Source: Parasphingorhabdus sp. (GTDB taxonomy: Bacteria; Pseudomonadota; Alphaproteobacteria; Sphingomonadales; Sphingomonadaceae). From it: DNA of 64,000 nt. Below the pieces are notes generated by a model. The model was not told the origin of the DNA. It made no database searches and saw nothing but the letters and a program-made list of their open reading frames with translations. The stretch covers positions 5,628 to 69,627 of the forward strand of contig NZ_JBALTF010000003.1 in assembly GCF_036964675.1 (NCBI RefSeq). The letters are read 5' to 3'. The position numbers and the translations under genes are program-made. This document shows positions 32,917-62,107 of the stretch, piece after piece; position 1 is the stretch's first letter; each line of letters opens with the position of its first letter.

Positions 32917-33166
32917 AATATATTCGTAGTGGCACAGGGTAGTCGCGAACCGATCAAACCAGTCCGGATGACGCTAATGGTTGGCGGATTGACTCCGGTG
33001 AGCTGGCGCCTTGTTGTAAATTGCAGAAGCATATTTTGTTCATATAAATAGCCTTTAACATGAACGGTCCCTGTCAGGTCAGTTCAGTCGCCACTCAAGC
33101 CGAATCACCTAGAAGGGCTTTGCAAGCTCGGGAAATGGTTTCGGGCAGTGTGAAAGGAAAGTGGAC

Positions 33167-33724
33167 ATGAACAAGTTGAACAAAGCTCTTGTTGGAACCG
33201 CTGCTGCTGCTGCAATGGCTGTTTCTGCTACCCCCGCGATGGCCAAGGATGGCCGGCATGGTGGACCGAGTGCCGGAGAAGTTATCGCCGGTGTTGCGAT
33301 CATCGGCGCGATTGCCGCGATTGCGAGTTCCGGCAACAACGACCGGAATTATCGCGATACCAATTATCGGAATGGCAATCAGCGAAATACCAATTATCGC
33401 GGTGACCGTTATGACAACGAGCGTTACACCGAATCTCGCTTCGGCAATGGCTATCGTCAGATCGGCCAGCGCCAGGCCGTCAACCGCTGCGTGCGGGCCG
33501 CCGAAAACGGAGCGACCAATCGCGGTCGAGCGTCGGTAACGGACATCCGCGACATTGACAGGACTCGCTATGGCTATCGGGTCAAGGGCAGAATTCTGGT
33601 CGAACAGGGGCGGGGTCGCCATCAGAGAGCCGGTTACGCCGACGAAGGCAAATTCACCTGCTATATCGAAGGCAATAGGGTTAGCGACGTTCAGTTCAGC
33701 GGCCTGAACTACAGCCGTCGCTAA
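33167..33724 (+). CDS. Hypothetical secreted protein, Arg/Asn-rich spacer, 2-Cys C-terminal domain (paralog 1)
   Basis: Signal peptide ..ATPAMA; GEVIAGVAIIGAIAAIASS hydrophobic segment. Confidence 0.85.
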   Translation: MNKLNKALVGTAAAAAMAVSATPAMAKDGRHGGPSAGEVIAGVAIIGAIAAIASSGNNDRNYRDTNYRNGNQRNTNYRGDRYDNERYTESRFGNGYRQIGQRQAVNRCVRAAENGATNRGRASVTDIRDIDRTRYGYRVKGRILVEQGRGRHQRAGYADEGKFTCYIEGNRVSDVQFSGLNYSRR

Positions 33725-33845
33725 GAGCGATGAGCGAAGTTAAACAAGCAATGATGGTTCAGCCTGGTGACAGGCTGGACCAACTATGTTCGATTCGACG
33801 GCAGGTTTTTGAATAAAAAGTCTGCGCTTGATAGGGGTGTCTCAG

Positions 33846-34475
33846 ATGACCAAAATGACCAGATTTTCTGCTTTTGCAGCATCCACCGCGCTGGTTTTTA
33901 CCGGCTTTTCGCCGGCCATGGCTGCGCCAGTGCACAGCGGAGTCGCTATCGCTACCCCGATTGATGTGGCGGCGCTGGGCTGGACCGCCGACAGTGAAAA
34001 TGCAAAAGGCTGGGGCGATTATCGTCGTGACCGGGGTTACCGTGGACATCGGCGCCATCGCGATGGGATCAGCGGCGGTGATCTATTGGCGGGTATATTG
34101 GTCATCGGCGGCATTGCGGCGATCGCCAGCGCGGCATCAAAAAACAATCGTGACAGGCGCTATGAAGATCGCGACTATCGCAGCGAAAACCCTCGCTATG
34201 ACGATCGGCGCGCCGACCCGCGCGATGAAAGCAGATATGACCGGGGGACCGGTGATATGGAATCGGCGATAAATGCCTGTTCCGATGCGGCTGAACGGCA
34301 AGCTGGCCGCGATGCGCGCGTTTCTGCCGTCCAATCAGTGGTCCGTGATGGCGAAGCCTGGCGGGTCGAAGGCATATTATCGAACAGTGAGCAAAGCTCA
34401 TTTCTCTGCGGAGCCAGCGAAGGCCGGGTAGATTTCGTGCAACTCGGCGACGGCGATCTCGCCTTTGCGAATTAA
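33846..34475 (+). CDS. Hypothetical secreted protein (paralog 2)
   Basis: Signal peptide ..FSPAMA; [19 protein letters not shown]; [13 protein letters not shown]. Confidence 0.85.
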
Positions 34476-35263
34476 ACCGCTGTCCGGCCAAATTCCTGAC
34501 GAGTGACCGGGTGCGATGCGCTCAGGCCCCCGTCAACGGCAATTGCTTGACCGTTGACATAGGATGAGCGGTCAGAAGCCAGAAAAAGTGCCACTTCCGC
34601 CATCTCCATCGGAGCCGCGCCACGGCGCAGCGGATTGAGATAGCCGAGCCGGTCTTCCTTGCCCTTTTCGCGGGCTTTATCATAAATGAACTGGGTCATG
34701 CCGGTTTCGGTAATGCCCGGACAAATGGCGTTGCAGCGCACATTCGACGTCGCAAATTGCTGGGATGCAACCTTGACCAGATTGATAACGCCCGCCTTGG
34801 AAGCCGAATAGGCTGGGCCGCCTGCGCCGGATCTGATGCCGGCGACACTGGCGGTGCAGATGATCGAGCCGCCATGCTTGCTTTCGGCAATTACCTTGCC
34901 GGCATATTTGCAGGCCAGAAACGGTCCGATCAAATTGACTCGCAACACTTCCTGCCATTCCGCGACGCTGCTGTCGAAAATGCCTTCAAAGCCGCCGCCG
35001 ATGCCGGCGTTGGCAAAGAACACATGAAGATCGCCAAAACGCTGTTCCGCTGCCTCGACAAGCATTTCGACATCGCCTTCCGATCCGGCATCGGCCTTGA
35101 TCGCGATGATATTGCCTTCGGAGCCTTTCGCAGTGTCCTCGACCGCGTCGGTGATGTCGCTGGCGATGACCTTCGCGCCGTGTTGAGCGAACAACAAGGC
35201 CGCAGCGCGGCCGATCCCGCTACCGGCGCCGGTGATGATCGCGACTTTGTCCTTGAGGTCCAT
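34472..35263 (-). CDS. Short-chain dehydrogenase/reductase
   Basis: [25 protein letters not shown]. Confidence 0.96.
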
Positions 35264-35264
35264 T

Positions 35265-36326
35265 TTAGGCTCCTGCTCTTTGTGCGACTTGCCATCCTGC
35301 CTGTGCCAGTGGCGTTACGCGATCCGACATTTCCGCTGCCGCTGCACTGTTCGCCGTGCCATCGACCACCCGCTTCTGGATGCCCTGCAGAATAGCAGCA
35401 ATCCGGAACAGATTATAGGCCAGATACCAGTCCATCGGCGGCAGTTCGGCCATGCCCGATTTCTCGCAATAGCGGGCAATGGCTTCCTCGCGGGTGGGGA
35501 TGCCCAGTGCCGCGAGATCGACGCCCTTCAAACCGCTGCGGCCTTCGGGTTCCATTTCATAGGCCATCAGCCAATAAGCGAAATCGGCAATCGGGTCGCC
35601 GAGGGTCGAGAGTTCCCAGTCGAGAACCGCGATGACCTTGGGTTCATCATGGGCAAAAATCATGTTATCCAGCCGGTAATCGCCATGGACGATGCCAAAG
35701 CTTTTCTGTTCCGGAATGGTTTTGGTGAGCCACTCTATCAGCTTGTCCATTTCGGGAATTTCCTGAAGTTCGGACAGTCGATATTGCTGCGTCCAGCGGG
35801 AAATCTGGCGCTCGCAATAATTGCCGGGCTTGCCGTGTTTTTCCAGTCCCAATGCGTCCGGATCAAAGCTGTGCAGCGAGGCCAGCGTGTCGATCATCTC
35901 ATGATAGATGGCGCGGCGTTCCTCGGGATTGCTGTCGGGCAATGTGCCGTCCCAGAATGTCCGGCCGTCGGCCATGCCCATGATGTAGAACATCGTACCG
36001 ATCACGCTGTCGTCTTCGCACAAGCCATAAGGCTTGGCGACGGGGAACCCGGCAGGATAGAGGCCGGCAATCACCCGGAACTCGCGGTCGACTGCATGGG
36101 CTGAAGGCAATAATTTTCCGACCGGTTTCTTGCGCAATACATAGGAAGTCGTCGGCGTATCGATCTTGTAGGTTGGATTGGACTGGCCGCCCTTGAACTT
36201 GCTCAAAGTGAGCGGGCCGGCAAAACCCTCGACATTGGCTTCCATCCATTTCTGCAGGGCTGCTTCGTCGAGCTTGTCCTTCTCCGGCACGTCCATCGTG
36301 CCGGTCATATCTTCCTGTGGATTCAT
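35265..36326 (-). CDS. APH-family phosphotransferase (ACAD10/11 kinase-domain / LvaA-like)
   Basis: [37 protein letters not shown]. Confidence 0.92.
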
Positions 36327-36342
36327 GGAAGTCCCTCTTCCT

Positions 36343-37428
36343 TTAACTAAAGACAATCACGGAACGTGCCGAATCACCTTTTTTCATTTTATCAAAACCG
36401 TCGTTGATCTGCTCTAGCGGAATCGTTTCTGCCACAATGCTATCCAAATCAAGCAGTCCACGCAGATAAAAATCTACCAGACGCGGGATATCAATCGGGA
36501 AGTGGTTTGACCCCATCAGCACGCCCTGCAATTTCTTGCCGGAGAGCAAATCCATCGCGCTCAGGCCGACTTTGTGATCCAGCGGCATCATGCCAAGGAT
36601 GGTTGCAGTGCCGCCGCGCTTGAGCGAACCGACCGCAAGATCGCCGGATGCAGCTCGGCCCACGGCTTCGATCGCATGATCAACGCCGCCTTTGGTGAGT
36701 TCCAGTATCTGCGCGGCCGCGTCATCCGCAGACGCATCAATCACATCTGTCGCGCCAAGCTTGATGGCAAGATCGCGTTTTTCCTTGATCGGATCCGCCG
36801 CAATAATCCGGCCGGCACCGGCGATTTTGGCGGCATTGATCGTCGCCAGCCCGACGCCGCCGCAACCGACGACGGCGACGGTTTCACCAGGCGTGAGCTT
36901 GCAGGCATTGAAGATCGTGCCCGCGCCGGTGGTCACGGCACAGCCAATAACCGCTGCCCGATCGAGCGGCATCTCCGGATCGATCCGTACACAGGCATGT
37001 TCGTGGATCAGCATCTGCTCGGCAAAGGCCGACAGATTGAGCATCTGTGCCACGGTCGAACCATCGGGCCGGGTGATCCGCGGCGCTTCGTCAGCGCGCC
37101 GCCGCGTGTCTGCGCCCAGGCACAAGGACATCCGGCCAGATACACAAAACTCGCAATGCCCGCAATAAGCTGACAGGCAGGAGACGACGGCATCGCCGAC
37201 CGCGACGGTGCGAACTTCGCTACCAATCGCCTCGACAATGCCCGCTGCCTCGTGGCCCGGAATCGCGGGCAGAGCATGCGGATAGCTGCCATCGATGAAA
37301 TGCAGGTCCGAATGGCACAGCCCGCAGGCGGCCGTTCGGATCAGCACTTCATGCGGTCCCGGTTTGGAGATGACGACGTCTTCTATTACGAGCGGTTTGC
37401 CCGCTTCGACCAGTACTGCTGCCTTCAT
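36343..37428 (-). CDS. Zn-dependent alcohol dehydrogenase (MDR)
   Basis: CHSD, GHE, CGHCEFC..C structural Zn loop, GCGGVG. Confidence 0.95.
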   Translation of the reverse strand: MKAAVLVEAGKPLVIEDVVISKPGPHEVLIRTAACGLCHSDLHFIDGSYPHALPAIPGHEAAGIVEAIGSEVRTVAVGDAVVSCLSAYCGHCEFCVSGRMSLCLGADTRRRADEAPRITRPDGSTVAQMLNLSAFAEQMLIHEHACVRIDPEMPLDRAAVIGCAVTTGAGTIFNACKLTPGETVAVVGCGGVGLATINAAKIAGAGRIIAADPIKEKRDLAIKLGATDVIDASADDAAAQILELTKGGVDHAIEAVGRAASGDLAVGSLKRGGTATILGMMPLDHKVGLSAMDLLSGKKLQGVLMGSNHFPIDIPRLVDFYLRGLLDLDSIVAETIPLEQINDGFDKMKKGDSARSVIVFS

Positions 37429-37437
37429 GATCTGCTC

Positions 37438-38739
37438 CTAGCGTGTGACCGCCAGATCACCTGACGAAAATTCTTCCTTCATCTTGCTGCCATCGGCGGT
37501 TTCGGCATATTTGCCATATTCCATCTTGGCGACCGTGCGATTGTGGACTTCGTCCGGACCATCGGCAAGCCGCAGGGTCCGTTGATGCGCATAAGCGCTG
37601 GCGAGGCCATAATCGTTGGAAACGCCGCCGCCGCCATGGGCCTGAATCGCATCATCAATGATTTTCAGCGCCATATTCGGAGCCTGCACCTTGATCATCG
37701 CGATTTCGGCCTTGGCATATTTATTGCCGACCTTGTCCATCATGTCTGCGGCTTTCAGGCAGAGCAGGCGGCTCATGTCGATATCGATCCGGGCGCGAGC
37801 GACGCGCTCATCCCAGACGCTATGCTCGGAAAGGCGTTTGCCGAACGCGACTCGCGATTGCAGGCGTTTGACCATTTTTTCGAGCGCTTCTTCGGCGACA
37901 CCGATGGTCCGCATGCAGTGATGGATACGACCGGGTCCGAGGCGACCCTGAGCGATTTCAAAACCGCGCCCTTCGCCGAGGATGATATTGGCCGCAGGAA
38001 CGCGAACGTCCTTCATTTCGACTTCCATATGGCCGTGCGGTGCATCGTCATAGCCGAAGACGGGCAGGTGACGGATGATGTTCACGCCCGGTGCGTCGGT
38101 TGGCATGAGAATCTGGGACTGCTGTGTATAGCGGCTGCCCTCGAATGTTGTTTTGCCCATCACAATTGCGATTTTGCAGCGCGGGTCGCCGAGGCCGGAT
38201 GACCACCATTTGCGGCCATTGATGACATATTCATTGCCATCGCGGACAATCGCGGTTTCGATATTGGTCGCATCGGAAGATGCAACGGCTGGCTCGGTCA
38301 TCAGGAAGGCGGAACGAATTTCACCGTTCATCAAGGGACGCAGATATTGTTCTTTCTGTTCCAGCGTGCCGTAGCGATGGAACACTTCCATATTGCCGGT
38401 ATCGGGAGCGGAGCAGTTGAACACTTCGGAAGAAAAGCCGACGCGGCCCATTTCTTCTGCGCACAAAGCATATTCCAGATTGGTCAGGCCAGGGCCTTCA
38501 AATTCAAAGACATCGTCAATATGGGTAAGATTGGGATTGGCTGGCGGCATGAACAGGTTCCAGATGCCGGCTTCCTTGGCTTTCTTCTTCTCTTGCTCAA
38601 CCACTTGCAGGACCTTCCAGCGTTCGCCGGTTGATTCTTCTTCGTGAAAATCAGCCATGCGGGGCCGGAGGTGAGTCTCGATATGATCGCGTACCCGGTT
38701 GCGCCAATATTCCTGCTTTTCGGTGAGATCGAAATCCAT
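37438..38739 (-). CDS. Acyl-CoA dehydrogenase, ACAD10/11 / LvaC / FadE2-like
   Basis: [45 protein letters not shown]. Confidence 0.93.
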
Positions 38740-38825
38740 TCCCAAATCCTTTTCTTTTTAACTATGCGATTAACTTATCAGAGGCGGCTTAGGCTTTCTA
38801 CCCTGAAACCGCTAGTCAGGTCATA

Positions 38826-40247
38826 TTATTCTGCAGCACTTGCGCGCGCCATCATCCGTTTTCGGTGATCATCCTCTCCCAAAGGAAATTTTGTATAGGC
38901 CCAGGCCCCAATCAGCGCCAAAATCGTTGCTATGATCAAATAAATGAAGGCGAGGCTATCAACGATACTGCCATCGACAGCACCCGGCTCGGCTCCTCTA
39001 GGCATGCCGACAAACGCGATGATCTGACTGGCCAGCAAAATACCCAACCCGTTCACAACTTTTTGCATGAAGAACATGCCGGATGAAAAAAGGCCTTCGG
39101 AGCGCTTGCCGGTATCATGTTCATATTGATCGGTAACATCGGCAATCATCGACATCGTCAGGATCATTGCCGCGATGCTGCTTGCTGTCGCCACCAGCAG
39201 CAATGCAAAAAGAACTGGGATCATCAAGTCCTCACCCGGTGCCGGGAAAATATTGGCGATGCGGAGCCAATAGGGCGCAGTGCCCACTGCAAGTGCCACA
39301 AGCGTAAGAATTGATGCGGCCCGCGCCTTGCCAAGCTTGATCGAGACAGGTGTCACCATCACGAATGCCAGTGTCGCTGCCCCAAATAACATGATGGAAT
39401 AAGCCGCAAAATCGGGCTGCCTGAACTCCCAGACATGCGTGAAAAGATAAGGCGAAAGCGCGAAAACAAGCCATTGATTGGTGAATGCAAAAACGCCTGC
39501 CAACATCAACAGCATGAAAGGCCGATATCTAAATGTTGCGATAATCTGCGAAAGCGATTCTGCGGCTTTTGGAAAAGATTTGGCTTCTCGATAGGTGGCG
39601 ACAACGCGTTTATGCGTGCCCAAAGCGGAAATCAAAACGGCTGCAAACATTATGCAGCCCCCGAAAATTGCATAACCTTCATAGCCGTCGCGGTTCAGCA
39701 ATCCGATCGGATATTCTTCTGATGGGACAAAGAAGATCGCATAGGCGAGAAACATGACAAACAGGCCGCCGGCCCAGCCGAACAGGAATCGGTAGCGCAT
39801 GATCGCGGTCCGATCATGATAATCGGTGCTCAGTTCCGGCAGCAGGGCGAGCGCTGGCACTTCATATGCAGAAAATGCCATTCTCACGAGTAACGCGGTG
39901 CCAAAAAGATAGAAGAACAGACCTGTTTGTCCCAATTCCGGCGGTTGCCAAAGCAGCAACCAAGCGATGATGATCGGGATCGCGGCACCATATAGCCAGG
40001 GATGCCGTCTGCCGATCGGTGTTCGGGTACGATCGCTGAATTGGCCCACTGCCGGATCTATAAAAGCGTCGGCGATCAAGGCCAGCGCAATGGCGAGCCC
40101 GACCAATCCGGCACCAAGCCCAATGACCTGCTCATAGTAGAAGAGCAGGAATGTGGCGAAGCCGTTATCCTTGATCCCGTAACCGATGGACCCGGAACCA
40201 TAGAATAGCTTGGATTTGAGCGGCAGCTTGTCCGAAGTCACCGTCAA
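38826..40247 (-). CDS. MFS transporter, GPH/MelB-like
   Basis: DAFIDPAVGQFSDRTRT..GRRHPW; ~12 hydrophobic segments; ADV.D..EG.F. Confidence 0.92.
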   Translation of the reverse strand: MTVTSDKLPLKSKLFYGSGSIGYGIKDNGFATFLLFYYEQVIGLGAGLVGLAIALALIADAFIDPAVGQFSDRTRTPIGRRHPWLYGAAIPIIIAWLLLWQPPELGQTGLFFYLFGTALLVRMAFSAYEVPALALLPELSTDYHDRTAIMRYRFLFGWAGGLFVMFLAYAIFFVPSEEYPIGLLNRDGYEGYAIFGGCIMFAAVLISALGTHKRVVATYREAKSFPKAAESLSQIIATFRYRPFMLLMLAGVFAFTNQWLVFALSPYLFTHVWEFRQPDFAAYSIMLFGAATLAFVMVTPVSIKLGKARAASILTLVALAVGTAPYWLRIANIFPAPGEDLMIPVLFALLLVATASSIAAMILTMSMIADVTDQYEHDTGKRSEGLFSSGMFFMQKVVNGLGILLASQIIAFVGMPRGAEPGAVDGSIVDSLAFIYLIIATILALIGAWAYTKFPLGEDDHRKRMMARASAAE

Positions 40248-41080
40248 CGCAGATGCTCCGGCAAGATCGCATCGAGCATGCCGGGTATTTCGGGATTCCA
40301 GCTGCCTTCGGTACCGACGAGCATGCCACCATCAACCAGCAGATGCGTGCCGGTGACAAAGCCGGCTGCATCGGAGGCGAGATAGGCTGCCGCTTCGGCA
40401 ATATCATTGGGCACACCGGGACGGCCAATGGGCTGCGCACTGGCCGCGGCCTGGCCGAGAACCGCATTGATCTCCCGGGCCTCTTCCTTGTTGGCGCCGA
40501 CCGTTGCCGCGAAAATATTGGTCTGGATGAATCCGGGGCATATCGCATTCACGCGGATCTTGTACCGGGCGAGCTCGGCTGCAGCGACCTTGGTCAGATG
40601 CAATACGCCAGCCTTGGCGGTCGAATAGGCAATCGGGCCATAGCCGGCCTGAAAAGAACAGATGGACGCGGTATTGACGATCGCCCCGCCGCCGCGTTTT
40701 TTCAGATGCGGCGCGGCGTGGCGGATACCCATGGCCACGGATTTGAGCAGCAAGGCCATGGCAAAGTCCCAGTCATCGCCGCTGATCTCGTCGATCGGGG
40801 CCCGCGGGCCGCCCGCACCGGCATTGTTAAATACGATATCGATGCCGCCGGTCTGCTCGGCCGCATAGTCCATCAGCGCCTTGACCTCGGCTTCCTGGGT
40901 GACATCACATTTTTTGAACAGAAAGCTATCGCCCAAGGCCGACATCATCGCGGTGCCTTCCGCTTCATCGATATCGCCCATGACAACAGTGGCGCCTTCG
41001 CGCAGGAAAAGGTCAACGCTAGCGCGTCCAATGCCCGATGAGCCGCCGGTTATCACGGCGGTTTTGTCTTTAAATCGCAT
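40244..41080 (-). CDS. Short-chain dehydrogenase/reductase
   Basis: TGGSSGIG, NNAG, YSTAK, IRVNAICPG. Confidence 0.95.
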   Translation of the reverse strand: MRFKDKTAVITGGSSGIGRASVDLFLREGATVVMGDIDEAEGTAMMSALGDSFLFKKCDVTQEAEVKALMDYAAEQTGGIDIVFNNAGAGGPRAPIDEISGDDWDFAMALLLKSVAMGIRHAAPHLKKRGGGAIVNTASICSFQAGYGPIAYSTAKAGVLHLTKVAAAELARYKIRVNAICPGFIQTNIFAATVGANKEEAREINAVLGQAAASAQPIGRPGVPNDIAEAAAYLASDAAGFVTGTHLLVDGGMLVGTEGSWNPEIPGMLDAILPEHLR

Positions 41081-41281
41081 CCTCTTGCGCTCCCATTTTT
41101 TTTGTCATTAAAGCGGTGATGCTTTTCAGCGTCAATCACTTGTGCTGGCCAGTCTCGTTTCCGTTACGGAATTCAAAAGACTTGCTGGTCGTTGTAAAAT
41201 TCAGCGTCAGATTCTCCGATTATTTTTGACTTCTGGCCAAGGGAATCGTTGAATCAATCCACGCAAATATGATAGTCCAAC

Positions 41282-41299
41282 TTTAATTGATCAATTAAA
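41282..41299. promoter_or_regulatory. Perfect 18-bp palindromic operator candidate
   Basis: TTTAATTGATCAATTAAA abutting the RBS of the ACAD at 41312, in a divergent spacer. Confidence 0.65.
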
Positions 41300-41311
41300 A
41301 GGAAATTCGTG

Positions 41312-42505
41312 ATGTCCGATCTTGAAACCTTCCGCGCGGAAACGGCGGCCTGGCTCGAAGCCAATTGTCCACCAGAGATGCGCGAACCGATGGTTGACGA
41401 AAGCGATGCCGTTTGGGGCGGGCGCAATCCGACATATAAGCCCGGACAAAAAGAGTGGCTGGACATCATGGCGGCGAAAGGCTGGACGGTCCCCGACTGG
41501 CCGAAAGAATATGGCGGTGGCGGATTGTCCCGGGCCGAAGCAAAAATTCTCGGCCAGGAAATGGCGCGGCTCAGATGCCGGTCACCCTTGTCGAGCTTTG
41601 GCATCTGGATGCTTGGCCCCGCGCTGCTGCATTTCGGTACCGAAGCGCAGAAGAAGCATTTCCTGCCGCCGATCGCACGCGGCGAAATTCGCTGGTGTCA
41701 GGGCTATTCCGAGCCCGGTTCGGGATCCGATCTGGCCTCGCTGCAAACCAGTGCCGTCGATCAAGGCGATCATTTCCTGGTCAACGGCCAGAAAATCTGG
41801 ACCAGCTACGCTGACAAGGCCGACTGGATTTTCTGCCTGACGCGGACCGACAAGAATGAAAAGCACAAGGGCATTTCGTTCATGCTGTTCGACATGGCCA
41901 GCGAAGGCGTGACGACCAAGCCGATCGTGCTGATTTCCGGTCAGTCGGCATTTTGCGAGACATTTTTCGATGATGTCAAAGTGCCCAAGGAATATGGTGA
42001 GGGCGTTTCCTCGGTCATCTATGAAGTGAACAAGGGCTGGGATGTTGCCAAATATCTGCTGGGCCACGAACGCAGCATGATTTCCGGCGGTGGTTCGGAA
42101 GGTGCGACGTCGCTTGGCGCCAAATTTGCCGATCAATATGGCCGCGATGCAATGGGCCGTCTCGACGATCCGATGCTGCGCGCGCAAATGGCCGAAATGG
42201 ACATTGATGTGCTGGCATTCCGCGCCATGGCTGAGCGTTTTGGCGACACGTTCAAGGCTGGTCTTTGCCATCCGGCCCAGCCCAATATGATGAAATATGC
42301 CGGCACCGAGATTAACAAGCGTCGCCACGAGCTGATCATGGCGGCCGGTGGCAGCGAAGTGCTGGAGTGGGAAAGCGATGCGACCAACGGCGGGCTCACC
42401 GCACGCAGCTGGCTGCGCACGAAGGCGAATAGTATTGAAGGCGGCACCAGCGAAGTCATGCTGAACGTCGTGTCCAAACAGATTTTGCGATTGCCCGGCG
42501 CCTAG
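41312..42505 (+). CDS. Acyl-CoA dehydrogenase (PimC/ChsE-like catalytic subunit)
   Basis: WCQGYSEPGSGSDLASL, NGQKIWT, SIEGGTSE. Confidence 0.93.
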   Translation: MSDLETFRAETAAWLEANCPPEMREPMVDESDAVWGGRNPTYKPGQKEWLDIMAAKGWTVPDWPKEYGGGGLSRAEAKILGQEMARLRCRSPLSSFGIWMLGPALLHFGTEAQKKHFLPPIARGEIRWCQGYSEPGSGSDLASLQTSAVDQGDHFLVNGQKIWTSYADKADWIFCLTRTDKNEKHKGISFMLFDMASEGVTTKPIVLISGQSAFCETFFDDVKVPKEYGEGVSSVIYEVNKGWDVAKYLLGHERSMISGGGSEGATSLGAKFADQYGRDAMGRLDDPMLRAQMAEMDIDVLAFRAMAERFGDTFKAGLCHPAQPNMMKYAGTEINKRRHELIMAAGGSEVLEWESDATNGGLTARSWLRTKANSIEGGTSEVMLNVVSKQILRLPGA

Positions 42506-42588
42506 CGGAGCCACTTCCGAACAGCTGTTCCGACAGAATGGCTTGGTGAGCGCGCTCGCAGCGCACAATATGAGATAAGGACTAGAAC

Positions 42589-43725
42589 ATGCCGCTTTAT
42601 TTGAACGACGATCAGCAGATGCTTCACGATAGTGCCGCTGAGTTTATGAAAGGCGAGGCCCCGGTTTCGCATCTTCGCGAATTTCGCGACAAGCAATGCA
42701 AGGACGGTTTCTCCCACGCGCTGTGGAAGCAGTTCGCGGAAATGGGCTTTACCGGGATATTGATTGGCGAAGAAGAAGGCGGCCTCGGCCTGGGCTATGT
42801 CGAAGCCGGCGTGGTACTCGAAGAAATCGGCCGCAACCTGACGCCTTCGCCCTTTCTGACCACGGCGGTCGCTGGCGTGGAAGCGCTCAATGCGGGCGGC
42901 AAGGCTTTGCGCGACAAATATTTCCCCGGCATTATCGCAGGCGGCACGGTGCTGGCGCTGGCGGTTGACGAGGGCGCGAAACACCGTCCGGATCAGATCA
43001 ATATGGCCGCTACCCGCGAAGGCAATGGCTTCAAGCTTGATGGCAAGAAGCAATTTGTCGTGCAGGGCGGCTCGGCTGACATGCTGATCGTTGCCGCGCG
43101 CACAAGTGGCGCAGCAGGCGATGCCAAGGGCCTGACTCTGTTTGCGGTTGATGCCAAGGCCAACGGCCTTTCCAGCAACAGTGCCCGGCTGGTCGACAGC
43201 GCGATGGCAGCGCATCTCCAGTTTGATGGCGTGATCGTCGATGCCGACGCGGTGATCGGCGAGGTCGACGATGGCGACACGGTGCTTCGGCGCATGTTGA
43301 ACGCGGGCCGTTCTGGCGCTGCTGCCGAAACGCTGGGCGTGGGCGCTGGTGCGATGGATATCACCGTCGACTATATCAAGGGCCGCAGCCAGTTCGGCAC
43401 TTTGATCGGTTCGTTCCAGGCGCTGCAGCATCGCATTTCCCATCTCTACAGCGAGATGGAAATCGCGCGGGCAACCGTTTTGAAAGCGCAGCAAATGCTG
43501 GATGAAGGCTCGTCCAAGGCCGAGCTGATGGTGTCGGTCGCCAAGGCCAAATCGGGCAAGGCAACCGCGCTGTCGGTCAAGGAAGGCGTCCAGATGCACG
43601 GCGGCGTTGGCATGACCGACGAATATGATATCGGCCTCTATATGAAGCGCGACCGCGCGTTGCAGGAATTCATGGGCGATGTGAATTATCACACCAATCT
43701 CGTTGCCGAAATGCACGGCTATTAA
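42589..43725 (+). CDS. Acyl-CoA dehydrogenase-like (PimD-like partner subunit)
   Basis: ACAD fold with degenerate LALAVDEG; RSQFG..IGSFQALQH, QMHGGVG. Confidence 0.9.
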   Translation: MPLYLNDDQQMLHDSAAEFMKGEAPVSHLREFRDKQCKDGFSHALWKQFAEMGFTGILIGEEEGGLGLGYVEAGVVLEEIGRNLTPSPFLTTAVAGVEALNAGGKALRDKYFPGIIAGGTVLALAVDEGAKHRPDQINMAATREGNGFKLDGKKQFVVQGGSADMLIVAARTSGAAGDAKGLTLFAVDAKANGLSSNSARLVDSAMAAHLQFDGVIVDADAVIGEVDDGDTVLRRMLNAGRSGAAAETLGVGAGAMDITVDYIKGRSQFGTLIGSFQALQHRISHLYSEMEIARATVLKAQQMLDEGSSKAELMVSVAKAKSGKATALSVKEGVQMHGGVGMTDEYDIGLYMKRDRALQEFMGDVNYHTNLVAEMHGY

Positions 43726-43737
43726 AGGAACACACTG

Positions 43738-44529
43738 ATGGATTTTAACAAGCTTTTCTCGCTCGAGGGCCGTGTCGCTTTGGTAACCGGCGGTCAACGC
43801 GGGATCGGTGCGATGATCACCGAAGGATTTTTGGCCCAGGGTGCGAAAGTCTATATCTCTGGCCGCAAGGCGGATCAGGGCGAAGCCGCCGCCGCCGAAT
43901 TTGGTGAGAATTGCACCTATATTCAGGGCGATATTTCGACCTATGAAGGCTGCCAGGCATTGGCCGCAGAAATCGCTTCCCGCGAAGAGAAGCTCGACAT
44001 TCTTGTCAACAACGCCGGCGTGGCATGGGGGGAGGAATATCTCTCGTTCCCGGAAGCCGGCTGGGACAAGGTGATGGATACCAATGTCAAAGGCCTGTTC
44101 TTCCTGACCCAGGCCCTGCATCCGCAATTGAAAGCGGCTGCCAGCTTTGAGCGGCCGGCCAAGGTCATCAACATTGCCTCGGTCGACGGATTGCAGATCA
44201 ATCCATGGGAAACCTACAGCTATCAGGCTTCCAAGGCGGCGGTCATTCATCTGACCCGCAAAATGGCTTCCAAACTGGTCCAGGAAGATATCATCATGAC
44301 CGGAATCGCCCCCGGTGCCTTTGCCTCGACGATGAACAAAGCCGCGCGCGATCATGAAGGTGCCGTCGAAAAGGGCATCCCGGCGAAACGCATTGGACGG
44401 CCCGAAGACATGGCCTCAGCGGCGGTATTTCTTGCAAGCTCGGCTGGTGACTATGTCGTTGGTTCGACGATTCCTGTCGATGGCGGCATCGTCAATGCGG
44501 GCAATCCCGGAACGACCCCAGCGATCTGA
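43738..44529 (+). CDS. Short-chain dehydrogenase/reductase
   Basis: TGGQRGIG, NNAG, YQASK. Confidence 0.95.
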   Translation: MDFNKLFSLEGRVALVTGGQRGIGAMITEGFLAQGAKVYISGRKADQGEAAAAEFGENCTYIQGDISTYEGCQALAAEIASREEKLDILVNNAGVAWGEEYLSFPEAGWDKVMDTNVKGLFFLTQALHPQLKAAASFERPAKVINIASVDGLQINPWETYSYQASKAAVIHLTRKMASKLVQEDIIMTGIAPGAFASTMNKAARDHEGAVEKGIPAKRIGRPEDMASAAVFLASSAGDYVVGSTIPVDGGIVNAGNPGTTPAI

Positions 44530-44599: not shown

Positions 44600-45130
44600 A
44601 TGGCCCCAAAATATCTGATTTTACTGGCGGCGCTGCCGCTTGCCCTGTCCGCTTGCAGCAAGGTGAAAGATGACTCCGCCGATGGTTCGGGGCTGTCGAT
44701 CGACTTTAGCGATGACAGCAAGCCCGACGCCGAAAAAATCAAAATTGGCGGCGGCGAGGAGGACAGCAAATTCTCGATCAAGGCTGATGGTTTCTCGATG
44801 GAAGTCGATTTGCCGTCGATCACGCTCGACAGCGATGATTTCGATATGAACAATGTCGATCTTTATCCGGGCAGTCAGATAACCAGCTTTGATATTGAAG
44901 ATGCGAAAGGCGAGGGTGGCAAGGTTCAAATCAGTTTCAAGGCACCGGCAAGTGCTGACAAGCTGGCGGACTGGTATGCGGGGCAATTGTCCGGCAAGGA
45001 TTTCGAAGTCGCACGGGACGGCACCAACCTGTCCGGAAAAACCGATGAAGGCGATCCCTTCTCGCTGGCGTTGACGGAAATATCAGCCAAGCAATCAAAA
45101 GGTGTGCTGGAGTTTTCCGAAAGCAAATAG
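44600..45130 (+). CDS. Hypothetical acidic lipoprotein
   Basis: GGAG RBS; MAPKYLILLAALPLALSAC lipobox. Confidence 0.85.
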   Translation: MAPKYLILLAALPLALSACSKVKDDSADGSGLSIDFSDDSKPDAEKIKIGGGEEDSKFSIKADGFSMEVDLPSITLDSDDFDMNNVDLYPGSQITSFDIEDAKGEGGKVQISFKAPASADKLADWYAGQLSGKDFEVARDGTNLSGKTDEGDPFSLALTEISAKQSKGVLEFSESK

Positions 45131-49806: not shown

Positions 49807-50637
49807 CTAGATCGCTGCCTGCGCGGTCATAATTTCCTTGCCGTCATTGCCCAGCACGGCGAGCGTGATTTTCTCGGCGTCCTGTTTCCCGACCAGATAT
49901 ATCGCGGCATTGGCAAAGGCAGGAGATTGTCCCCGGAAGGAAAAGCGGGAAAGTTTGTTTGCGCCCAGCTCGCTTGCCGCCAGATTGAGCAATAATGTCG
50001 CCATCAGCGGGCCTTGCACGACCAGGCCGGGATAGCCTTCGTCCTGCACCGCATAGGGCTTGTCATAATGGATGCGGTGACTGTTGAAGGTCAGCGCCGA
50101 GTAGCGGAACAGCAGCGGCTCGGACGGAATGATCTGCTGCTGCCAGTCCCACCCGCTCATGTCAGCAGGTTTGGCACTGGCGGGCTGAGCGGGGGCGGAA
50201 GGCCCAGCGGGCTGGCGATAGACGATATTCTGTCTTTCCCTTATCGCTACCTGCTGACCAACGCGCGTTTCATGATCGACGGCAACAAATACCAGATCGC
50301 CGGATTTCCCCGATTTCTCCTCAATCGAGGCGATGGTCGAGATGCGGGACACTTCATCACCCAATTGCAGCGAGTGATCAAAAGAGACGCTGCTCGACGC
50401 CCACATCCGGCGGGGCAGGGCGATCGGTGGCAGGAAGCCGCCTTTCGCGGGATGACCATCTTTCCCCAGTTCAGCCGCCGGAGCATCGGGTAGACAGAGA
50501 CACCAGTGCAGCCCCTGTGGAATGTCGTCAGTGACCGGGCGGTCGATGGTCGCGCAAAAGCGGTGCAGCAGGCCCGGCGTTATGAGGTCGCTACGGGTCT
50601 CGCTCTTGCCGATCCAGTCTGCCCAGCCGCTCATCAA
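49807..50637 (-). CDS. Double-hotdog acyl-CoA (de)hydratase (HTD2/MaoC-like)
   Basis: FLPPIALPRRMWAS, LFRYSALTFNSHRIHYD, GLVVQGPL. Confidence 0.9.
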   Translation of the reverse strand: MMSGWADWIGKSETRSDLITPGLLHRFCATIDRPVTDDIPQGLHWCLCLPDAPAAELGKDGHPAKGGFLPPIALPRRMWASSSVSFDHSLQLGDEVSRISTIASIEEKSGKSGDLVFVAVDHETRVGQQVAIRERQNIVYRQPAGPSAPAQPASAKPADMSGWDWQQQIIPSEPLLFRYSALTFNSHRIHYDKPYAVQDEGYPGLVVQGPLMATLLLNLAASELGANKLSRFSFRGQSPAFANAAIYLVGKQDAEKITLAVLGNDGKEIMTAQAAI

Positions 50638-51782
50638 TAGCTCCTCGGCAGGCCCAGCACATGTTCGGCGACATAGGACAGGATCATATTGGTGCTGATC
50701 GGAGCGACCTGATAGAGCCGGGTCTCGCGAAATTTGCGCTCGACATCATATTCTGCCGCAAAACCAAAGCCGCCATGGGTCTGGACGCAGGCTTCTCCCG
50801 CAGCCCAGCTGGCATCGGCGGCCAGCATCTTGGCCATATTGGCTTCCTCGCCGCAATTTTCGCCCGCTTCATATTTGCGCAGGCCCTCGTGGACCAGCAG
50901 CTCGGCGGCGCGCATCTGCGCATAGGCGCGGGCGATCGGGAATTGCACGCCCTGGTTCTGGCCAATCGGTCGGCCGAACAGTACCCGCTCCTTGGCATAA
51001 GCGGTGGCCTTTTCGATGAACCATTTGGCATCGCCGATACATTCCGCCGCAATCAGCAGCCGCTCGGCGTTCATGCCGGAGAGAATATAGCGAAAGCCAT
51101 TGCCCTCCTCGCCGATCAGATTCGCAGCGGGGACGCGCATATTGTCAAAGAACAATTCGGTGGTGCTGTGGTTCATCATCGTCTCGATCGGCCGGATGGT
51201 CAGGCCGTTGCCCAGCGCTGCGTTCATGTCGACAAGAAAGACCGACAGGCCGTCGGTGCGCTTGCTCACCTGGTCGCGCGGCGTCGTACGGGCGAGCAAC
51301 AGCATCAAGTCGCTATGCTCGGCCCGGCTGGTCCATAATTTCTGACCATTGATGACATAATCATCGCCATCACGCTTGGCGACGGTCTTGAGCGCCAGCG
51401 TATCGGTGCCGCTGGTCGGCTCGGTTACGCCAAATGCTTGCAGGCGCAATTCACCGGTGGCGATCTTTGGCAGATATTGGGATTTCTGCTCGTCCGATCC
51501 GTGGCGCAACATCGTGCCCATGATATACATTTGCGCGTGCACCGCGCCACCGTTACAGCCCTGCGCCTGAATTTCTTCGAGGATCGCTGCCGCCGCGGAA
51601 ATCGGCAGTCCGGCACCGCCAAATTCTTCAGGGATCAGGGCCGCAAGATATCCCGCTTCGCCGAGAGCGTTGACAAAATCGGTCGGATATTCGCGCGCCT
51701 TGTCCCGCGCGCGCCAATATTCGCCGGGAAATTTCTGGCAAAGCTTGGCAACTTCCGCGCGTATATCACTATAATCCTGCAT
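50634..51782 (-). CDS. Acyl-CoA dehydrogenase
   Basis: FGVTEPTSGTDT, NGQKLW, REQ-like ERVLFGRPIG, QTHGGFG. Confidence 0.94.
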   Translation of the reverse strand: MQDYSDIRAEVAKLCQKFPGEYWRARDKAREYPTDFVNALGEAGYLAALIPEEFGGAGLPISAAAAILEEIQAQGCNGGAVHAQMYIMGTMLRHGSDEQKSQYLPKIATGELRLQAFGVTEPTSGTDTLALKTVAKRDGDDYVINGQKLWTSRAEHSDLMLLLARTTPRDQVSKRTDGLSVFLVDMNAALGNGLTIRPIETMMNHSTTELFFDNMRVPAANLIGEEGNGFRYILSGMNAERLLIAAECIGDAKWFIEKATAYAKERVLFGRPIGQNQGVQFPIARAYAQMRAAELLVHEGLRKYEAGENCGEEANMAKMLAADASWAAGEACVQTHGGFGFAAEYDVERKFRETRLYQVAPISTNMILSYVAEHVLGLPRSY

Positions 51783-51979: not shown

Positions 51980-53914
<1,935 letters not shown>

Positions 53915-53922
<8 letters not shown>

Positions 53923-54589
53923 ATTTCAGGCCTTCCTTCTCCAGCCGCTCGCGCATGCTGTACATGTCGAGGCCCAAGATGCCGCTCTCCAGCTTCTGCC
54001 TTTTGTCTTCCTCATTGGCCTCCCGCGCCTGCGCCTTTTCCAGCACTTCGGCCGCATTTTGCCGCGGCACTACACAAACGCCGTCATCATCGGCGACGAT
54101 CACATCACCCGGATTTACAAGAGCGCCGGCGCAGACGATCGGGATATTCACCGAACCCAATGTGTTCTTGACGGTGCCCTGGGCAAAGACAGCTTTCGAC
54201 CAGACCGGAAAATTCATTTGGGTGAGATCGCGGACATCGCGAACACCGGCGTTGATGATCAGGCCGCGACCACCACGTGATTGCGCCGATGTCGCCAGAA
54301 GGTCGCCGAAATAGCCATCTTCGCAGGGGCTGGTCGGTTCCAGAACCAATATGTCGCCCGCCTGCATCTGTTCGATCGCGACATGGACCATCCAGTTATC
54401 GCCGGGCGCTGCCGATATGGTGACGGCATTTCCGGCCACGCGCGCTCCGGCATAGATCGGCGTCATATGCGAGGCCATGAGGCCGGTTCGGCCCTGTGCT
54501 TCGTGGACTGTCGCCACGCCGCATTTGCCGAGTGCATCGACCAGTTTCAGATCGGTCCGTTCAATATTCTGAACAACAATATTCGCCAT
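53915..54589 (-). CDS. ligK: 4-carboxy-4-hydroxy-2-oxoadipate (HMG/CHA) aldolase
   Basis: [31 protein letters not shown]. Confidence 0.93.
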
Positions 54590-54644
54590 TTTCAATTCCT
54601 CTAACAATCATGTCAGTGTCGCAGGCCAAGCGGGATTGCGCAAT

Positions 54645-54670
54645 TTGGAACTTGGGCCGGGCTATAAGAT
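54645..54670 (-). promoter_or_regulatory. Predicted LigR site upstream of ligK
   Basis: ATCTTATAGCC-N9-TTCCAA on minus strand; same conserved positions at 55843-55868 on plus strand. Confidence 0.6.
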
Positions 54671-54687
54671 TGTGCTAATCCTGTTCC

Positions 54688-55833
54688 ATGGAAATTTGGG
54701 AACTCAACTTGCGTCATTTGTATGCAGCGATGGAAATCTGCGACAAAGGCAGCATAAGCGCTGCGGCAGATGCGGTAAATCTGACCCAGCCGGCGATAAC
54801 CCAGGGGTTGGTGAAGCTCGAAACACAATTGGGGCAACCGCTGTTTGAGCGTCATCCGGACGGGATGACTCCGACGTCCGCTGCGACGATATTTGTCCCC
54901 AGGATCGAGGCCGCACTGGCCAATATCGGTTCGACCCGCGTGACCATGGCGCAATTGCGCGCCTTTCTGTCGGTGGCAGAGCATGGCAGCTATCCAACCG
55001 CCAGCGCGATGTCGGGTCTGGCGCAGCCATCGCTGCATCGTTCGGTTGCCAATCTTGCCATCGCCCTGAAGCGCAAATTGCTGGAACGGCGCGGCAAAGG
55101 CATGGCGCTGACCGCACAGGGTCGCGCGCTGGCCCGCCTCTTCCGTCTGGCCCGCGCCGAACTTGCCGCCGGACTGTCGGAACTGGAGGCACTCAAGGGC
55201 CGGGAAACGGGCATAATTTCGATTGGCGCCATGCCTCTGTGCAGAGCGCGTCTGCTGCCCAAGGCTGTGGCGCAATTTCACCATGCTTATCCCGAAAGCG
55301 AAATCCGGATTGTCGAGGGCAGCCATAATGAGCTTATCGAGCCACTGCGTGACGGTGAACTGGATCTTCTGATCGGGGCGCTGCGCGATCCCCCGCCCGG
55401 CGATGACGTGCAACAAAGGCCGCTATTCGAAGATCATCCGGTGGTTATCGGCCGCTATAGTCATCCATTGCAGGGCCACCGCCCCGATCTCGAGAAACTC
55501 GCCAGTTACCCGTGGATCATCGCTGCCCCTGGCACGCCGCTCAGAATGCGGTGGGAGCAAATGTTCGAGTCTGCGGGGATAGCCTGTCCGGATGTTCCGA
55601 TAGAATGCGGTTCGGTGATTACCATCCGCCAGATATTGCTCGAAAGCGATTTTCTGACCTTGCTCTCGCCGGATCAGGTTGCCGTGGAACTGGAGGCGGG
55701 ATGGCTGTCGGCAATCGGCGAGCCGCCGGAAGGGTTGCACCGGATCATCGGCGCAACCACGCGCGCGGGCTGGATGCCAACCGCGATGCAGCGGGCTTTC
55801 ATGGCGATGCTGGAAGCGGCGGCGAAAAACTGA
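54688..55833 (+). CDS. ligR: LysR-type regulator with two HTH segments
   Basis: N-terminal HTH (SISAAA..LTQPAIT) and second HTH (SYPTAS..LAQPSLHR); divergent from ligK. Confidence 0.88.
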   Translation: MEIWELNLRHLYAAMEICDKGSISAAADAVNLTQPAITQGLVKLETQLGQPLFERHPDGMTPTSAATIFVPRIEAALANIGSTRVTMAQLRAFLSVAEHGSYPTASAMSGLAQPSLHRSVANLAIALKRKLLERRGKGMALTAQGRALARLFRLARAELAAGLSELEALKGRETGIISIGAMPLCRARLLPKAVAQFHHAYPESEIRIVEGSHNELIEPLRDGELDLLIGALRDPPPGDDVQQRPLFEDHPVVIGRYSHPLQGHRPDLEKLASYPWIIAAPGTPLRMRWEQMFESAGIACPDVPIECGSVITIRQILLESDFLTLLSPDQVAVELEAGWLSAIGEPPEGLHRIIGATTRAGWMPTAMQRAFMAMLEAAAKN

Positions 55834-55842
55834 ATTCGCTTT

Positions 55843-55868
55843 ATCTTATAGCCAATCTCGCTTTCCAA
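55843..55868 (+). promoter_or_regulatory. Predicted LigR site upstream of orf-ligJABC
   Basis: ATCTTATAGCC-N9-TTCCAA. Confidence 0.6.
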
Positions 55869-55904
55869 TTGGCAGATATCTCGGCTTGCAGATAGCATCC
55901 GGTC

Positions 55905-56687
55905 ATGACGCAAAATGTCTCTCTTATCGGTTTCGGTGAAGCGGGCTCGACCTTTGCCAGGGCAGGCGGTTGGGGTGATGCCGCGCGAGTCTATGATATC
56001 AAGGACAAGTTGTCGGAATATAGGGCGGCAGGTGTGATCGGATGCGCTTCCTCGCGTGACGCGATAAAGGGTTCCGCTGCGATCATCAGTCTTGTGACCG
56101 CCGGTCAGGCTATGGCTGCTGCAGAAGAAGCTGCACAGGGCATTGCACCGGGCGCGCTATATTTTGATATGAATTCGGTGGCACCCGATACCAAACGCAG
56201 CGCGGCAAAATATATTGATGAAGCAGGCGGACGCTATGTCGATGTTGCGGTCATGGCGCCGGTCAATCCCGCCGAGATGTCCGTGCCGCTGCTGCTTTCC
56301 GGCGCTGATGCAGCCGATGGAGCGCTTGTTCTGGGCAAGCTCGGTTTTGACAATATTCGTCTGGTGGATGGAGAAATCGGCAAATCATCATCGATCAAGA
56401 TGATCCGTTCGATCATGGTCAAGGGCATCGAAGCGCTGACCGCAGAAATGATGCTCGCCGCCCGCGAAGCCGGTGTCAGTGACGATGTTCTGCAATCGCT
56501 CGGTCCGGAATGGGCTGAAAAGGCAAATTACAATATCGAGCGGATGACCACCCATGGGTTGCGCCGCGCAGAAGAAATGGAACAGGTCGCTTTGACCCTG
56601 GATGCACTGGGCATCGAACCACTGATGACAAAAGCCACGATTGCCCGCCAGCGGCAAATGGCGAATAAGGGAGGACTGGCAGCATGA
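55905..56687 (+). CDS. NAD(P)-dependent oxidoreductase (6PGD/3-HIBADH-like, DUF1932-like C-terminus)
   Basis: IGFGEAG Rossmann motif, DMNSVAP, DVAVMAPV, KMIRS. Confidence 0.88.
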   Translation: MTQNVSLIGFGEAGSTFARAGGWGDAARVYDIKDKLSEYRAAGVIGCASSRDAIKGSAAIISLVTAGQAMAAAEEAAQGIAPGALYFDMNSVAPDTKRSAAKYIDEAGGRYVDVAVMAPVNPAEMSVPLLLSGADAADGALVLGKLGFDNIRLVDGEIGKSSSIKMIRSIMVKGIEALTAEMMLAAREAGVSDDVLQSLGPEWAEKANYNIERMTTHGLRRAEEMEQVALTLDALGIEPLMTKATIARQRQMANKGGLAA

Positions 56688-57702
56688 GCCTGATCATTGA
56701 TTGTCATGGTCATTATACCACAGCGCCGACAGCGCATAATGAATGGCGCGAGGCGCAGAAGGCGGCTTATGCGTCCGGCGAACCGGCCGGGCCTTATCCC
56801 GAAATTTCCGACGACCAGATCCGCGAAACGCTTGAGGCAAACCAGATCAGGTTGCTGAAAGAGCGCGGTGCAGACATGACGATATTCTCGCCCCGCGCAT
56901 CGGCGATGGCGCCGCATATCGGTGATGAAGGCGTCGCCAAAAAATGGGCGCAGGTGAATAATGATCTGATCAAGCGCTGCGCCGAACTCTATCCGGATAT
57001 ATTCGTGCCAGTCTGCATGTTGCCGCAAAGTCCGAAAGCGGACATGCAGGGCAGTATCGAGGAGCTGGAACGTTGCGTCGACATGGGTTTTGTCGGATGC
57101 AATCTCAATCCCGACCCCGGCGGCGGCAAGTTTGAACACCCGCCGTTGACCGATACATTCTGGTATCCGTTCTACGAGAAAATGGTAGAGCTGGACGTAC
57201 CGGCGATGATCCATGTTTCGGGCAGCTGCAATCCGGCCATGCATGCAACCGGCGCTTATTATATCGCGGCAGACACGATCGCCTTCATGCAATTCATCCA
57301 GGGCGATCTGTTCAAGGATTTTCCGGATCTGCGGTTCATCATTCCGCATGGCGGTGGCGCGGTTCCCTATCATTGGGGGCGCTATCGCGGCCTTGCCGAC
57401 ATGCTCAAGCAACCGGATCTGTCCGGCCATGTGATGAACAACGTGTATTTTGACACCTGTGTCTATCACCAGCCCGGCGTCACGTTGCTGGCCGACGTGA
57501 TCGACAACAAAAATATCCTGTTTGGCAGCGAAATGGTCGGGGCGGTGCGCGGCATCGACCCGCAGACAGGTCAATATTTTGATGACACGAAACGTTATGT
57601 TGATGCGCTCGATATTTCCGATGCCGAGCGGCACGCGATTTTTGAGGGCAATGCGCGGCGGGTCTACCCCCGGCTGGATGCCCAATTGAAGGAGAGAGGA
57701 TT

Positions 57703-57706
<4 letters not shown>
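56684..57706 (+). CDS. ligJ: 4-oxalomesaconate hydratase
   Basis: IDCHGHYTTAP, NLNPDP, HGGGAVPYHWGRY, FGSEMVGA. Confidence 0.94.
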
Positions 57707-58993
<1,287 letters not shown>

Positions 58994-59011
58994 ATTCGAC
59001 GGAGAATTAAC

Positions 59012-62107
<3,096 letters not shown>

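Follow-up and report, generated by a model that had tools for sequence, protein, structure and literature searches.

What does a bacterium do with a kinase and an acyl-coenzyme A (CoA) dehydrogenase of the kind that animals carry as the fusions ACAD10 and ACAD11 and use to burn 4-hydroxy fatty acids, and why should a zinc-dependent alcohol dehydrogenase stand between the two? The question is raised by a locus of a marine Parasphingorhabdus sp. (genome 2.74 Mb, 99.8% complete), located in a stretch of 64,000 nucleotides (contig NZ_JBALTF010000003.1, positions 5,628 to 69,627) that is called the window here. On the minus strand, six closely packed genes (34472-41080) encode, in operon order from 5' to 3', a short-chain dehydrogenase/reductase (SDR2), an MFS_2 transporter, an acyl-CoA dehydrogenase-fold enzyme (ACAD), a zinc-dependent alcohol dehydrogenase (Zn-ADH, or ADH), a kinase of the aminoglycoside phosphotransferase (APH) fold and a further SDR (SDR1). 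A route in which 4-hydroxy acids are phosphorylated and the phosphate is then eliminated was described for Pseudomonas in 2017 and, in 2024-2025, for mammals, and to our knowledge the natural substrates of this route in bacteria, as well as its accessory enzymes, are largely unknown.

Judged from homology and gene order, it is probable that the block around this operon represents a conserved Sphingomonadales set that feeds 4-hydroxyacyl-CoA (probably 4-oxoacyl-CoA also) into beta-oxidation by phosphorylation and subsequent elimination of the phosphate. The core chemistry is not new, having been shown for the Lva pathway of Pseudomonas putida, for a split kinase and ACAD pair of Burkholderia and for ACAD10/11. 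What appears to be undescribed is a Zn-ADH fixed between ACAD and kinase, and the Sphingomonadales block of ten genes as such; the literature yielded no paper on this cluster in sphingomonads, on the fixed Zn-ADH or on the ten-gene block. An earlier, sequence-only reading of the window had marked 34472-38739 as a minus-strand run of ACAD, Zn-ADH, APH kinase and SDR, limits that coincide exactly with the stretch from SDR1 to the ATG of the ACAD gene at 38739. Its unit of four genes proved too narrow, as the conserved block comprises about ten: SDR2 heads the operon, and a divergent pair of PimCD-like ACAD genes together with a third SDR gene, SDR3 (41309-44529), is part of the same block, which is widespread in Sphingomonadales.

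The kinase and the acyl-CoA dehydrogenase

Compared with solved structures, the ACAD of the window reaches 437 bits with mouse ACAD11 (8v3u), 436 bits with human ACAD11 (2wbi) and 412 bits with 4hr3, a structural-genomics relative from Mycobacterium abscessus, versus 132 bits for the best conventional ACAD outside this family. A stretch of 13 residues that covers R626, R631, H634 and R637 (the HCMR region) agrees with mouse ACAD11 letter for letter, LADGPDEVH aligns with the mouse motif and holds the catalytic aspartate (D753) in place of the usual glutamate, and the SAPDTGNME motif, from which the sequence-only reading had typed the enzyme, is indeed found. Conservation was followed in 80 loci, exclusively from Sphingomonadales, which were recovered by scanning a genome collection with the ADH as query, and the counts of gene order refer to loci with enough flanking sequence. 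The phosphate-binding HCMR motif and LADGPDEVH are kept in 72/72 orthologues, and the enzyme is the only ACAD of the ACAD10/11 type in its genome. In ACAD11, mutagenesis of the phosphate-binding Arg/His/Arg and of the catalytic Asp abolishes phosphate elimination from 4-phosphoacyl-CoA, and ACAD10/11 do not oxidize plain C6-C22 acyl-CoAs (PMC12440821). The ACAD of the window is predicted to be a 4-phosphoacyl-CoA phosphate eliminase that yields 2-enoyl-CoA, an assignment well supported by homology.

A similar picture is obtained for the kinase, which scores 396 bits to 3dxp, a structural-genomics relative from Cupriavidus, and 280 bits to the kinase domain of mouse ACAD11 over its whole length (residues 18-360). 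HGDYRLDN supplies the counterparts of mouse D220 and N225, the DWE metal motif is present, the Arg of YCERQ aligns with the CoA-contacting mouse R176, and DREF of helix alphaC aligns with mouse DREF; the residue termed R86 in PMC12440821 is not exactly matchable to the numbering of the PDB entries. The catalytic Asp and Asn, DWE, DRE and the CoA-contacting Arg are retained in 75/75 orthologues. Equally well supported by homology is the prediction that this enzyme is a 4-hydroxyacyl-CoA kinase of the ACAD10/11 kinase-domain type. In the same genome, a second APH-like gene lies directly upstream of another ACAD gene (contig C1:102255-104893, outside the window); the two products are 31% and 28% identical to the window's kinase and ACAD, respectively, and represent a different class of kinase-ACAD pair.

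The two genes are collinear with the two domains of the mammalian kinase-ACAD fusions (8v3u, 8v3v, 2wbi; PMC12440821, PMC11342911), with the difference that they are separate here, have the Zn-ADH gene between them and belong to an operon with a transporter and SDRs, and that the HAD phosphatase domain of ACAD10 has no counterpart. The bit scores and the kept residues strongly support the view of a split ACAD10/11 already taken in the sequence-only reading. A split form close to ACAD10/11 exists in Burkholderia pseudomallei, where a separate kinase (Q63VL0) and ACAD replaced both ACAD10 domains in vitro (PMC11342911); the likeness to this pair is one of description, not of direct alignment, and a Zn-ADH between the genes is not reported there.

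The same logic of kinase, phosphate-eliminating ACAD and SDR is realized by separate genes in one operon in P. putida, lvaABCDE with LvaR (PMC12440821, PMC11342911), and a true levulinate operon, with levulinate or 4-hydroxyvalerate as the substrate and SDR1 or the ADH in the role of LvaD, is therefore an alternative to be weighed. The chemistry of kinase and ACAD would be alike, and an SDR adjoins the kinase in this locus too. SDR1, a classical short-chain dehydrogenase, is a candidate LvaD-like 4-oxoacyl-CoA/4-hydroxyacyl-CoA oxidoreductase; an orthologue follows the kinase in 44/64 loci and is missing in 20/64. The gene set speaks differently. Spacers of 1-16 nt leave no room for an LvaB-sized open reading frame (ORF), and none is present between or beside the cluster genes; LvaE and LvaR are likewise absent from the cluster, and AMP-binding ligase genes number zero on this contig, all 14 of the genome being on other contigs, which bears out the earlier remark that neither a CoA ligase nor LvaB is visible. 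The kinase, moreover, is of another type. Published identities put LvaA at only 29% with the ACAD10/11 kinase domains, and other bacterial kinases, the B. pseudomallei enzyme among them, are closer, at up to 51% with ACAD10 and 38% with ACAD11 (PMC11342911); the strong full-length alignment with ACAD11 places the kinase of the window with the ACAD10/11-proximal type rather than with LvaA, a comparison that rests on these published identities and on scores to PDB structures. The two-subunit ACAD partners of the PimCD/ChsE type and a FadB gene in Sphingopyxis suggest longer chains as well. A genuine lva operon is accordingly improbable. The label 'Lva-like' used in the sequence-only reading holds for the chemistry and fails for the gene set and the kinase type, and since LvaB, the ligase and LvaR are all missing from the cluster, the block most likely works like Lva and ACAD10/11 and is not an lva operon. 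What it has in addition to the P. putida set is the Zn-ADH, two more SDRs, the MFS_2 transporter and the divergent PimCD-like pair.

The zinc-dependent alcohol dehydrogenase and its block in Sphingomonadales

The Zn-ADH had been regarded as an extra to the kinase and ACAD, a view that the comparison of loci does not sustain, because it turns out to be a fixed core member in Sphingomonadales. Across genera including Sphingopyxis, Novosphingobium, Blastomonas, Tsuneonella, Chakrabartia and Allosphingosinicella, the ACAD gene lies directly upstream of the ADH gene in 70/72 loci and the kinase gene directly downstream in 73/75. The other members follow at varying frequency: the divergent pimC gene is found in 56/58 loci, the transporter in 49/58 and SDR2 in 41/58, and the pimD-like gene and SDR3 are syntenic in almost every locus. 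Many loci, notably those of Sphingopyxis, have one additional SDR gene between kinase and SDR1. Many Novosphingobium loci are without SDR1 and a few also without the transporter; in N. fuchskuhlense both are gone, so that the operon stops at the kinase and unrelated genes follow. The ADH is hence a steadier partner of the cluster than SDR1. In two Allosphingosinicella-like loci (L110, L112) ACAD and ADH are followed by an SDR and then SDR1, and a directly downstream kinase is lacking, a natural variant that could show whether ADH and ACAD function without an adjoining kinase.

The distribution was also viewed in 201 evenly sampled genomes from the GTDB family, of which 146 have an ACAD11-type gene and 82 the ADH (E <= 1e-130), the latter nearly always adjoining the ACAD gene by coordinates. 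In a class-wide sample, none of the ADH homologues from outside the family (at most 62% identity) had an ACAD11-type or APH gene beside it. The ADH-linked ACADs form one clade of the maximum-likelihood tree (support 100/98), with a kinase-less paralogue of the genus as the sister, and a single clade points to a single origin of the ADH insertion. Within Sphingomonadales the ADH is 78-95% identical, the highest value of the cluster; outside the genus, the ADH stays at 78-89% identity, the ACAD at 72-79% and the kinase at 58-67%. Beyond the ten genes, no regulator, ligase or hydratase was found among conserved neighbours in 60 loci longer than 15 kb, compared with one Sphingopyxis reference. Pfam annotation of one Sphingopyxis locus places genes for a beta-lactamase-fold hydrolase and for a FadB-type enzyme just downstream; a relative of the FadB ORF occurs in 22/60 long loci, and the hydrolase in only 4/60.

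Could the ADH be a passenger, a gene that came to lie between ACAD and kinase by insertion and plays no part in the pathway? Such a history would agree with the existence of ACAD-kinase(-SDR) loci without ADH in other lineages, such as one in another family of the order (L147) with the bare order ACAD, kinase, SDR, the last being a 39% relative of SDR1, and with the sphingomonads that possess an orthologous ACAD and lack the ADH, as the 146 and 82 genomes above illustrate. Yet the ADH has stayed between both genes in many genera, is the best conserved protein of the block, is joined to its neighbours by tight spacers and is retained in Novosphingobium loci that lost SDR1 and the transporter, while its nearest homologues elsewhere lie outside such clusters. 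There is thus little probability that it is a mere passenger.

The enzyme itself is a medium-chain ADH that scores 249 bits to an S-(hydroxymethyl)glutathione dehydrogenase (7aas) and reaches 245 bits with human ADH1B. Its sequence contains the catalytic-zinc ligands Cys46, His67 and Cys174, the four cysteines of the structural zinc, and Ser48 and His51, and Asp223 predicts a preference for NAD. Assignment as a class III or glutathione-dependent formaldehyde dehydrogenase was considered and rejected: the TIGR02818 score is 274 bits versus a cut-off of 544, and position 115 is Asp in the alignment with ADH1B, so that Arg115 is absent. More generally, the protein falls far under the equivalog cut-offs of glutathione- and mycothiol-dependent formaldehyde dehydrogenases. 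The cluster ADHs have in common an Arg-rich substrate loop, TRR...PR..R, which is partly found in non-cluster homologues and is weakly suggestive of an anionic substrate.

From these features, the ADH may serve as a 4-oxo/4-hydroxy oxidoreductase that replaces or complements an LvaD-like SDR, or may oxidize an alcohol upstream of the pathway. The kinase of ACAD10 favours the R enantiomer (PMC11342911), and given this preference it can be speculated that a pair of dehydrogenases achieves stereo-inversion through the 4-oxo form. A bolder proposal makes the Zn-ADH an indispensable third enzyme in a pathway specific to Sphingomonadales, where it would act on acyl-CoA thioesters, either as a 4-oxoacyl-CoA reductase or, with an SDR, as an epimerising pair that gives the kinase its preferred 4-hydroxyacyl-CoA enantiomer; it is put forward tentatively and remains rather unlikely as a whole. 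If it were true, the activity would be new among class I/III-like medium-chain ADHs, and the ten-gene block would be devoted to imported mid-chain oxygenated fatty or dicarboxylic acids, or to lactones.

A predicted route for 4-oxygenated acyl-CoA

In the proposed route, the MFS_2 transporter would act as the importer, and CoA activation would depend on enzymes encoded elsewhere, as would the remaining steps of beta-oxidation. The kinase would use ATP to phosphorylate the 4-hydroxyl of the acyl-CoA, and the ACAD10/11-type flavoenzyme would eliminate the phosphate to give 2-enoyl-CoA. The NAD(P)-dependent oxidoreductases would most likely swap oxo and hydroxy groups, whether by reducing 4-oxoacyl-CoA as LvaD does, by correcting the stereochemistry for the kinase or by an upstream alcohol oxidation. 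The two-subunit ACAD encoded by the divergent PimCD-like genes would, together with SDR3, work on the same carbon skeleton, before or after the elimination of phosphate.

The divergent pair has its closest solved relatives, for the PimC-like protein, in the alpha2beta2 ACADs 6wy9 and 4x28, and its architecture of a large and a small subunit is common to PimCD of Rhodopseudomonas palustris and to ACADs of the ChsE4-ChsE5 type. Its scores are far under the equivalog cut-offs (Table 1), too low to assign pimeloyl-CoA as its substrate. Two other families of the order give independent support. One has the bare order ACAD, kinase, SDR mentioned above (L147); in the other, an ACAD11-type gene lies inside a full beta-oxidation cluster, which comprises PimC-like and PimD-like genes and one for an acyl-CoA ligase, the ACAD11-type gene with an SDR3-like gene, and genes for a MaoC hydratase, an SDR, a thiolase and a second ligase. 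In L148 and L149, from another family of the order, a relative of SDR3 (42-43%) directly follows the ACAD11-type gene. That PimCD-like ACADs, SDR3 and an ACAD11-type enzyme are together again in another family supports a functional link among them and a setting of acyl-CoA catabolism.

As to the substrate, the best guesses are mid-chain fatty acids with a hydroxy or oxo group, hydroxy-dicarboxylic acids and gamma-lactones, and the substrate may possibly be a new one for the pathway. Beta-oxidation of 10-hydroxy or 10-oxo stearate gives 4-oxo and 4-hydroxy intermediates (PMC7411827), which makes the intermediates of the proposed pathway plausible.

Several observations weigh against the proposed route. 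The class I/III-like ADH family normally takes free alcohols, so that its place in a route of CoA esters is a guess, and transporters of the GPH/MFS_2 class are atypical for fatty acids. The sequence-only reading had correctly recognized a GPH-type MFS transporter upstream of the ACAD (Table 1), which is the least conserved member of the block (34-46% identity outside the genus) and receives only generic MFS names in the ESM Atlas. Genes for a CoA ligase or transferase, for a hydratase and for a thiolase are absent from the cluster. Furthermore, relatives in the same genus and order (L139-L146) have ACAD11-type genes, both paralogues and orthologues, without an APH kinase within 8 kb; their ACADs all keep the catalytic-Asp motif, and all keep the HCMR motif except a 55% paralogue (L141, L142), in which the match of the HCMR region failed. 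For these relatives, either the kinase must be encoded elsewhere or the enzyme must act differently. Finally, several prokaryotic homologues of the ACAD10 kinase phosphorylate 1-O-alkylglycerol (chimyl alcohol) in vitro, some of them needing acetyl-CoA (bioRxiv 10.1101/2025.09.10.675409), and homology alone can therefore not fix the substrate of the kinase.

This last finding is the basis of an alternative in which the kinase would phosphorylate a lipid alcohol, for instance 1-O-alkylglycerol or monoacylglycerol as in ether-lipid salvage, the MFS_2 protein imports a lysolipid-like molecule, and the ACAD is functionally separate. The lysolipid carrier Mfsd2a is among the best solved matches of the transporter; the match, however, is weak (about 54 bits), confined to the N-terminal part and equal to that of MelB. 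The conserved CoA-contacting Arg of the kinase, and its strict operon link to an ACAD in which all phosphate-binding residues are retained, agree poorly with this alternative, and the lipid-alcohol explanation is slightly less probable than an lva operon or a passenger ADH. Very improbable, lastly, is a conventional FAD-dependent dehydrogenase of straight-chain acyl-CoA beside an unrelated phosphotransferase such as an antibiotic kinase, which would suit the generic Pfam names of both proteins but not the gap between 437 and 132 bits, the Asp at the ACAD10/11 catalytic position, the intact HCMR region, the inactivity of ACAD10/11 on C6-C22 acyl-CoAs (PMC12440821) or the score of the kinase with the APH(3') NCBIfam models (27 bits, cut-off 205).

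The phosphorylation-elimination route thus preferred would have, in this block, a well-defined and widely kept bacterial version with added fixed partners, namely the Zn-ADH, the two-subunit ACAD, the SDRs and the transporter. Its study could reveal what naturally feeds the pathway and what happens in it to the oxo, R-hydroxy and S-hydroxy forms, and bears on the dispute over whether 4-hydroxyacyl-CoA or alkylglycerols are the substrate of ACAD10-type kinases.

Gene layout, control region and neighbouring genes

The features of the block are collected in Table 1. The spacers within the operon are 9 nt from ACAD to ADH, 16 nt from ADH to kinase and 1 nt from kinase to SDR1. Although longer frames exist for both genes, translation of the ACAD likely starts at ATG 38739, and that of the kinase likely at ATG 36326, with the ribosome-binding site AGGAAGAGG ahead of the start.

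Table 1. Genes and control region of the block, with positions in the window
Feature	Position	Strand	Remarks
SDR1	34472-35263	-	last operon gene; PF13561 195 bits, PF00106 157 bits; NCBIfam matches generic only
APH-fold kinase	35265-36326	-	PF01636 180 bits; ORF extends to TTG 36356
Zn-dependent medium-chain ADH	36343-37428	-	PF08240 and PF00107
ACAD10/11-type (LvaC-type) ACAD-fold enzyme	37438-38739	-	three ACAD Pfam domains; ORF extends to 38745
MFS_2 (GPH-like) transporter	38826-40247	-	PF13347 338 bits; TIGR00792 152 bits, under its 231-bit cut-off
SDR2	40244-41080	-	first operon gene; PF13561 200 bits; abuts transporter gene
Divergent control region	41081-41308		228 bp intergenic
PimC-like large ACAD subunit	41309-42505	+	three ACAD domains; TIGR03204 pimC_large 267 bits, under cut-off (624)
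PimD-like small ACAD subunit	42589-43725	+	ACAD domains; TIGR03203 pimD_small 238 bits, under cut-off (653)
SDR3	43738-44529	+	3' of pimCD; PF13561 168 bits
Predicted lipoprotein, LSAC lipobox	44600-45130	+	3' of SDR3; no Pfam/NCBIfam match

In the divergent control region, promoter and operator roles can be proposed from sequence features. A putative promoter of the SDR2 operon on the minus strand consists of TTGACG, a spacer of 17 nt and TTTAAT, with the -35 box at about 41129-41134, and between the divergent promoters lies a CCGTA(A/G)CG element (TTCCGTTACGGAA, 41159-41171); the TTGAC -35 box and this element occur in the same order and relative position across genera. Just 5' of pimC, a perfect 16-bp palindrome (TTAATTGATCAATTAA, about 41283-41298) is shared with some relatives of the genus. 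The exact 13-mer TTCCGTTACGGAA has a single site in the genome, and relaxed matches showed no genome-wide enrichment (40 versus 140 in the control), so that no regulon could be defined. No regulator gene is present nearby or conserved in the block.

The operon ends at SDR1, on which two plus-strand genes for secreted proteins converge. These (33161-33724 and 33828-34475) encode paralogous proteins that have signal peptides and a high content of Arg, Asp, Tyr and Asn, are kept in the genus and gave zero matches with Pfam and NCBIfam. Minus-strand ORFs below SDR1 (34102-34491, 33759-34058 and 33095-33622) were rejected as spurious, the plus-strand frames being more conserved. At the other end of the block, the lipoprotein is 54-79% identical within the genus and 31-41% identical to proteins encoded at the same position of Sphingopyxis loci; its link to the pathway is uncertain.

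Further along the window, beyond katG and not syntenic with the conserved block, a hot-dog (MaoC/FAS1-dehydratase-like) gene overlaps the end of another ACAD gene on the minus strand (49807-51782). It is followed at 51980-61116 by a protocatechuate 4,5-cleavage (lig-type) set, which includes a LigB-family dioxygenase, a GFO/IDH/MocA dehydrogenase with OxRdtase_C, two Amidohydro_2 genes, PrpF, an RraA-like aldolase and an FAD-dependent 4-hydroxybenzoate-hydroxylase-like gene.

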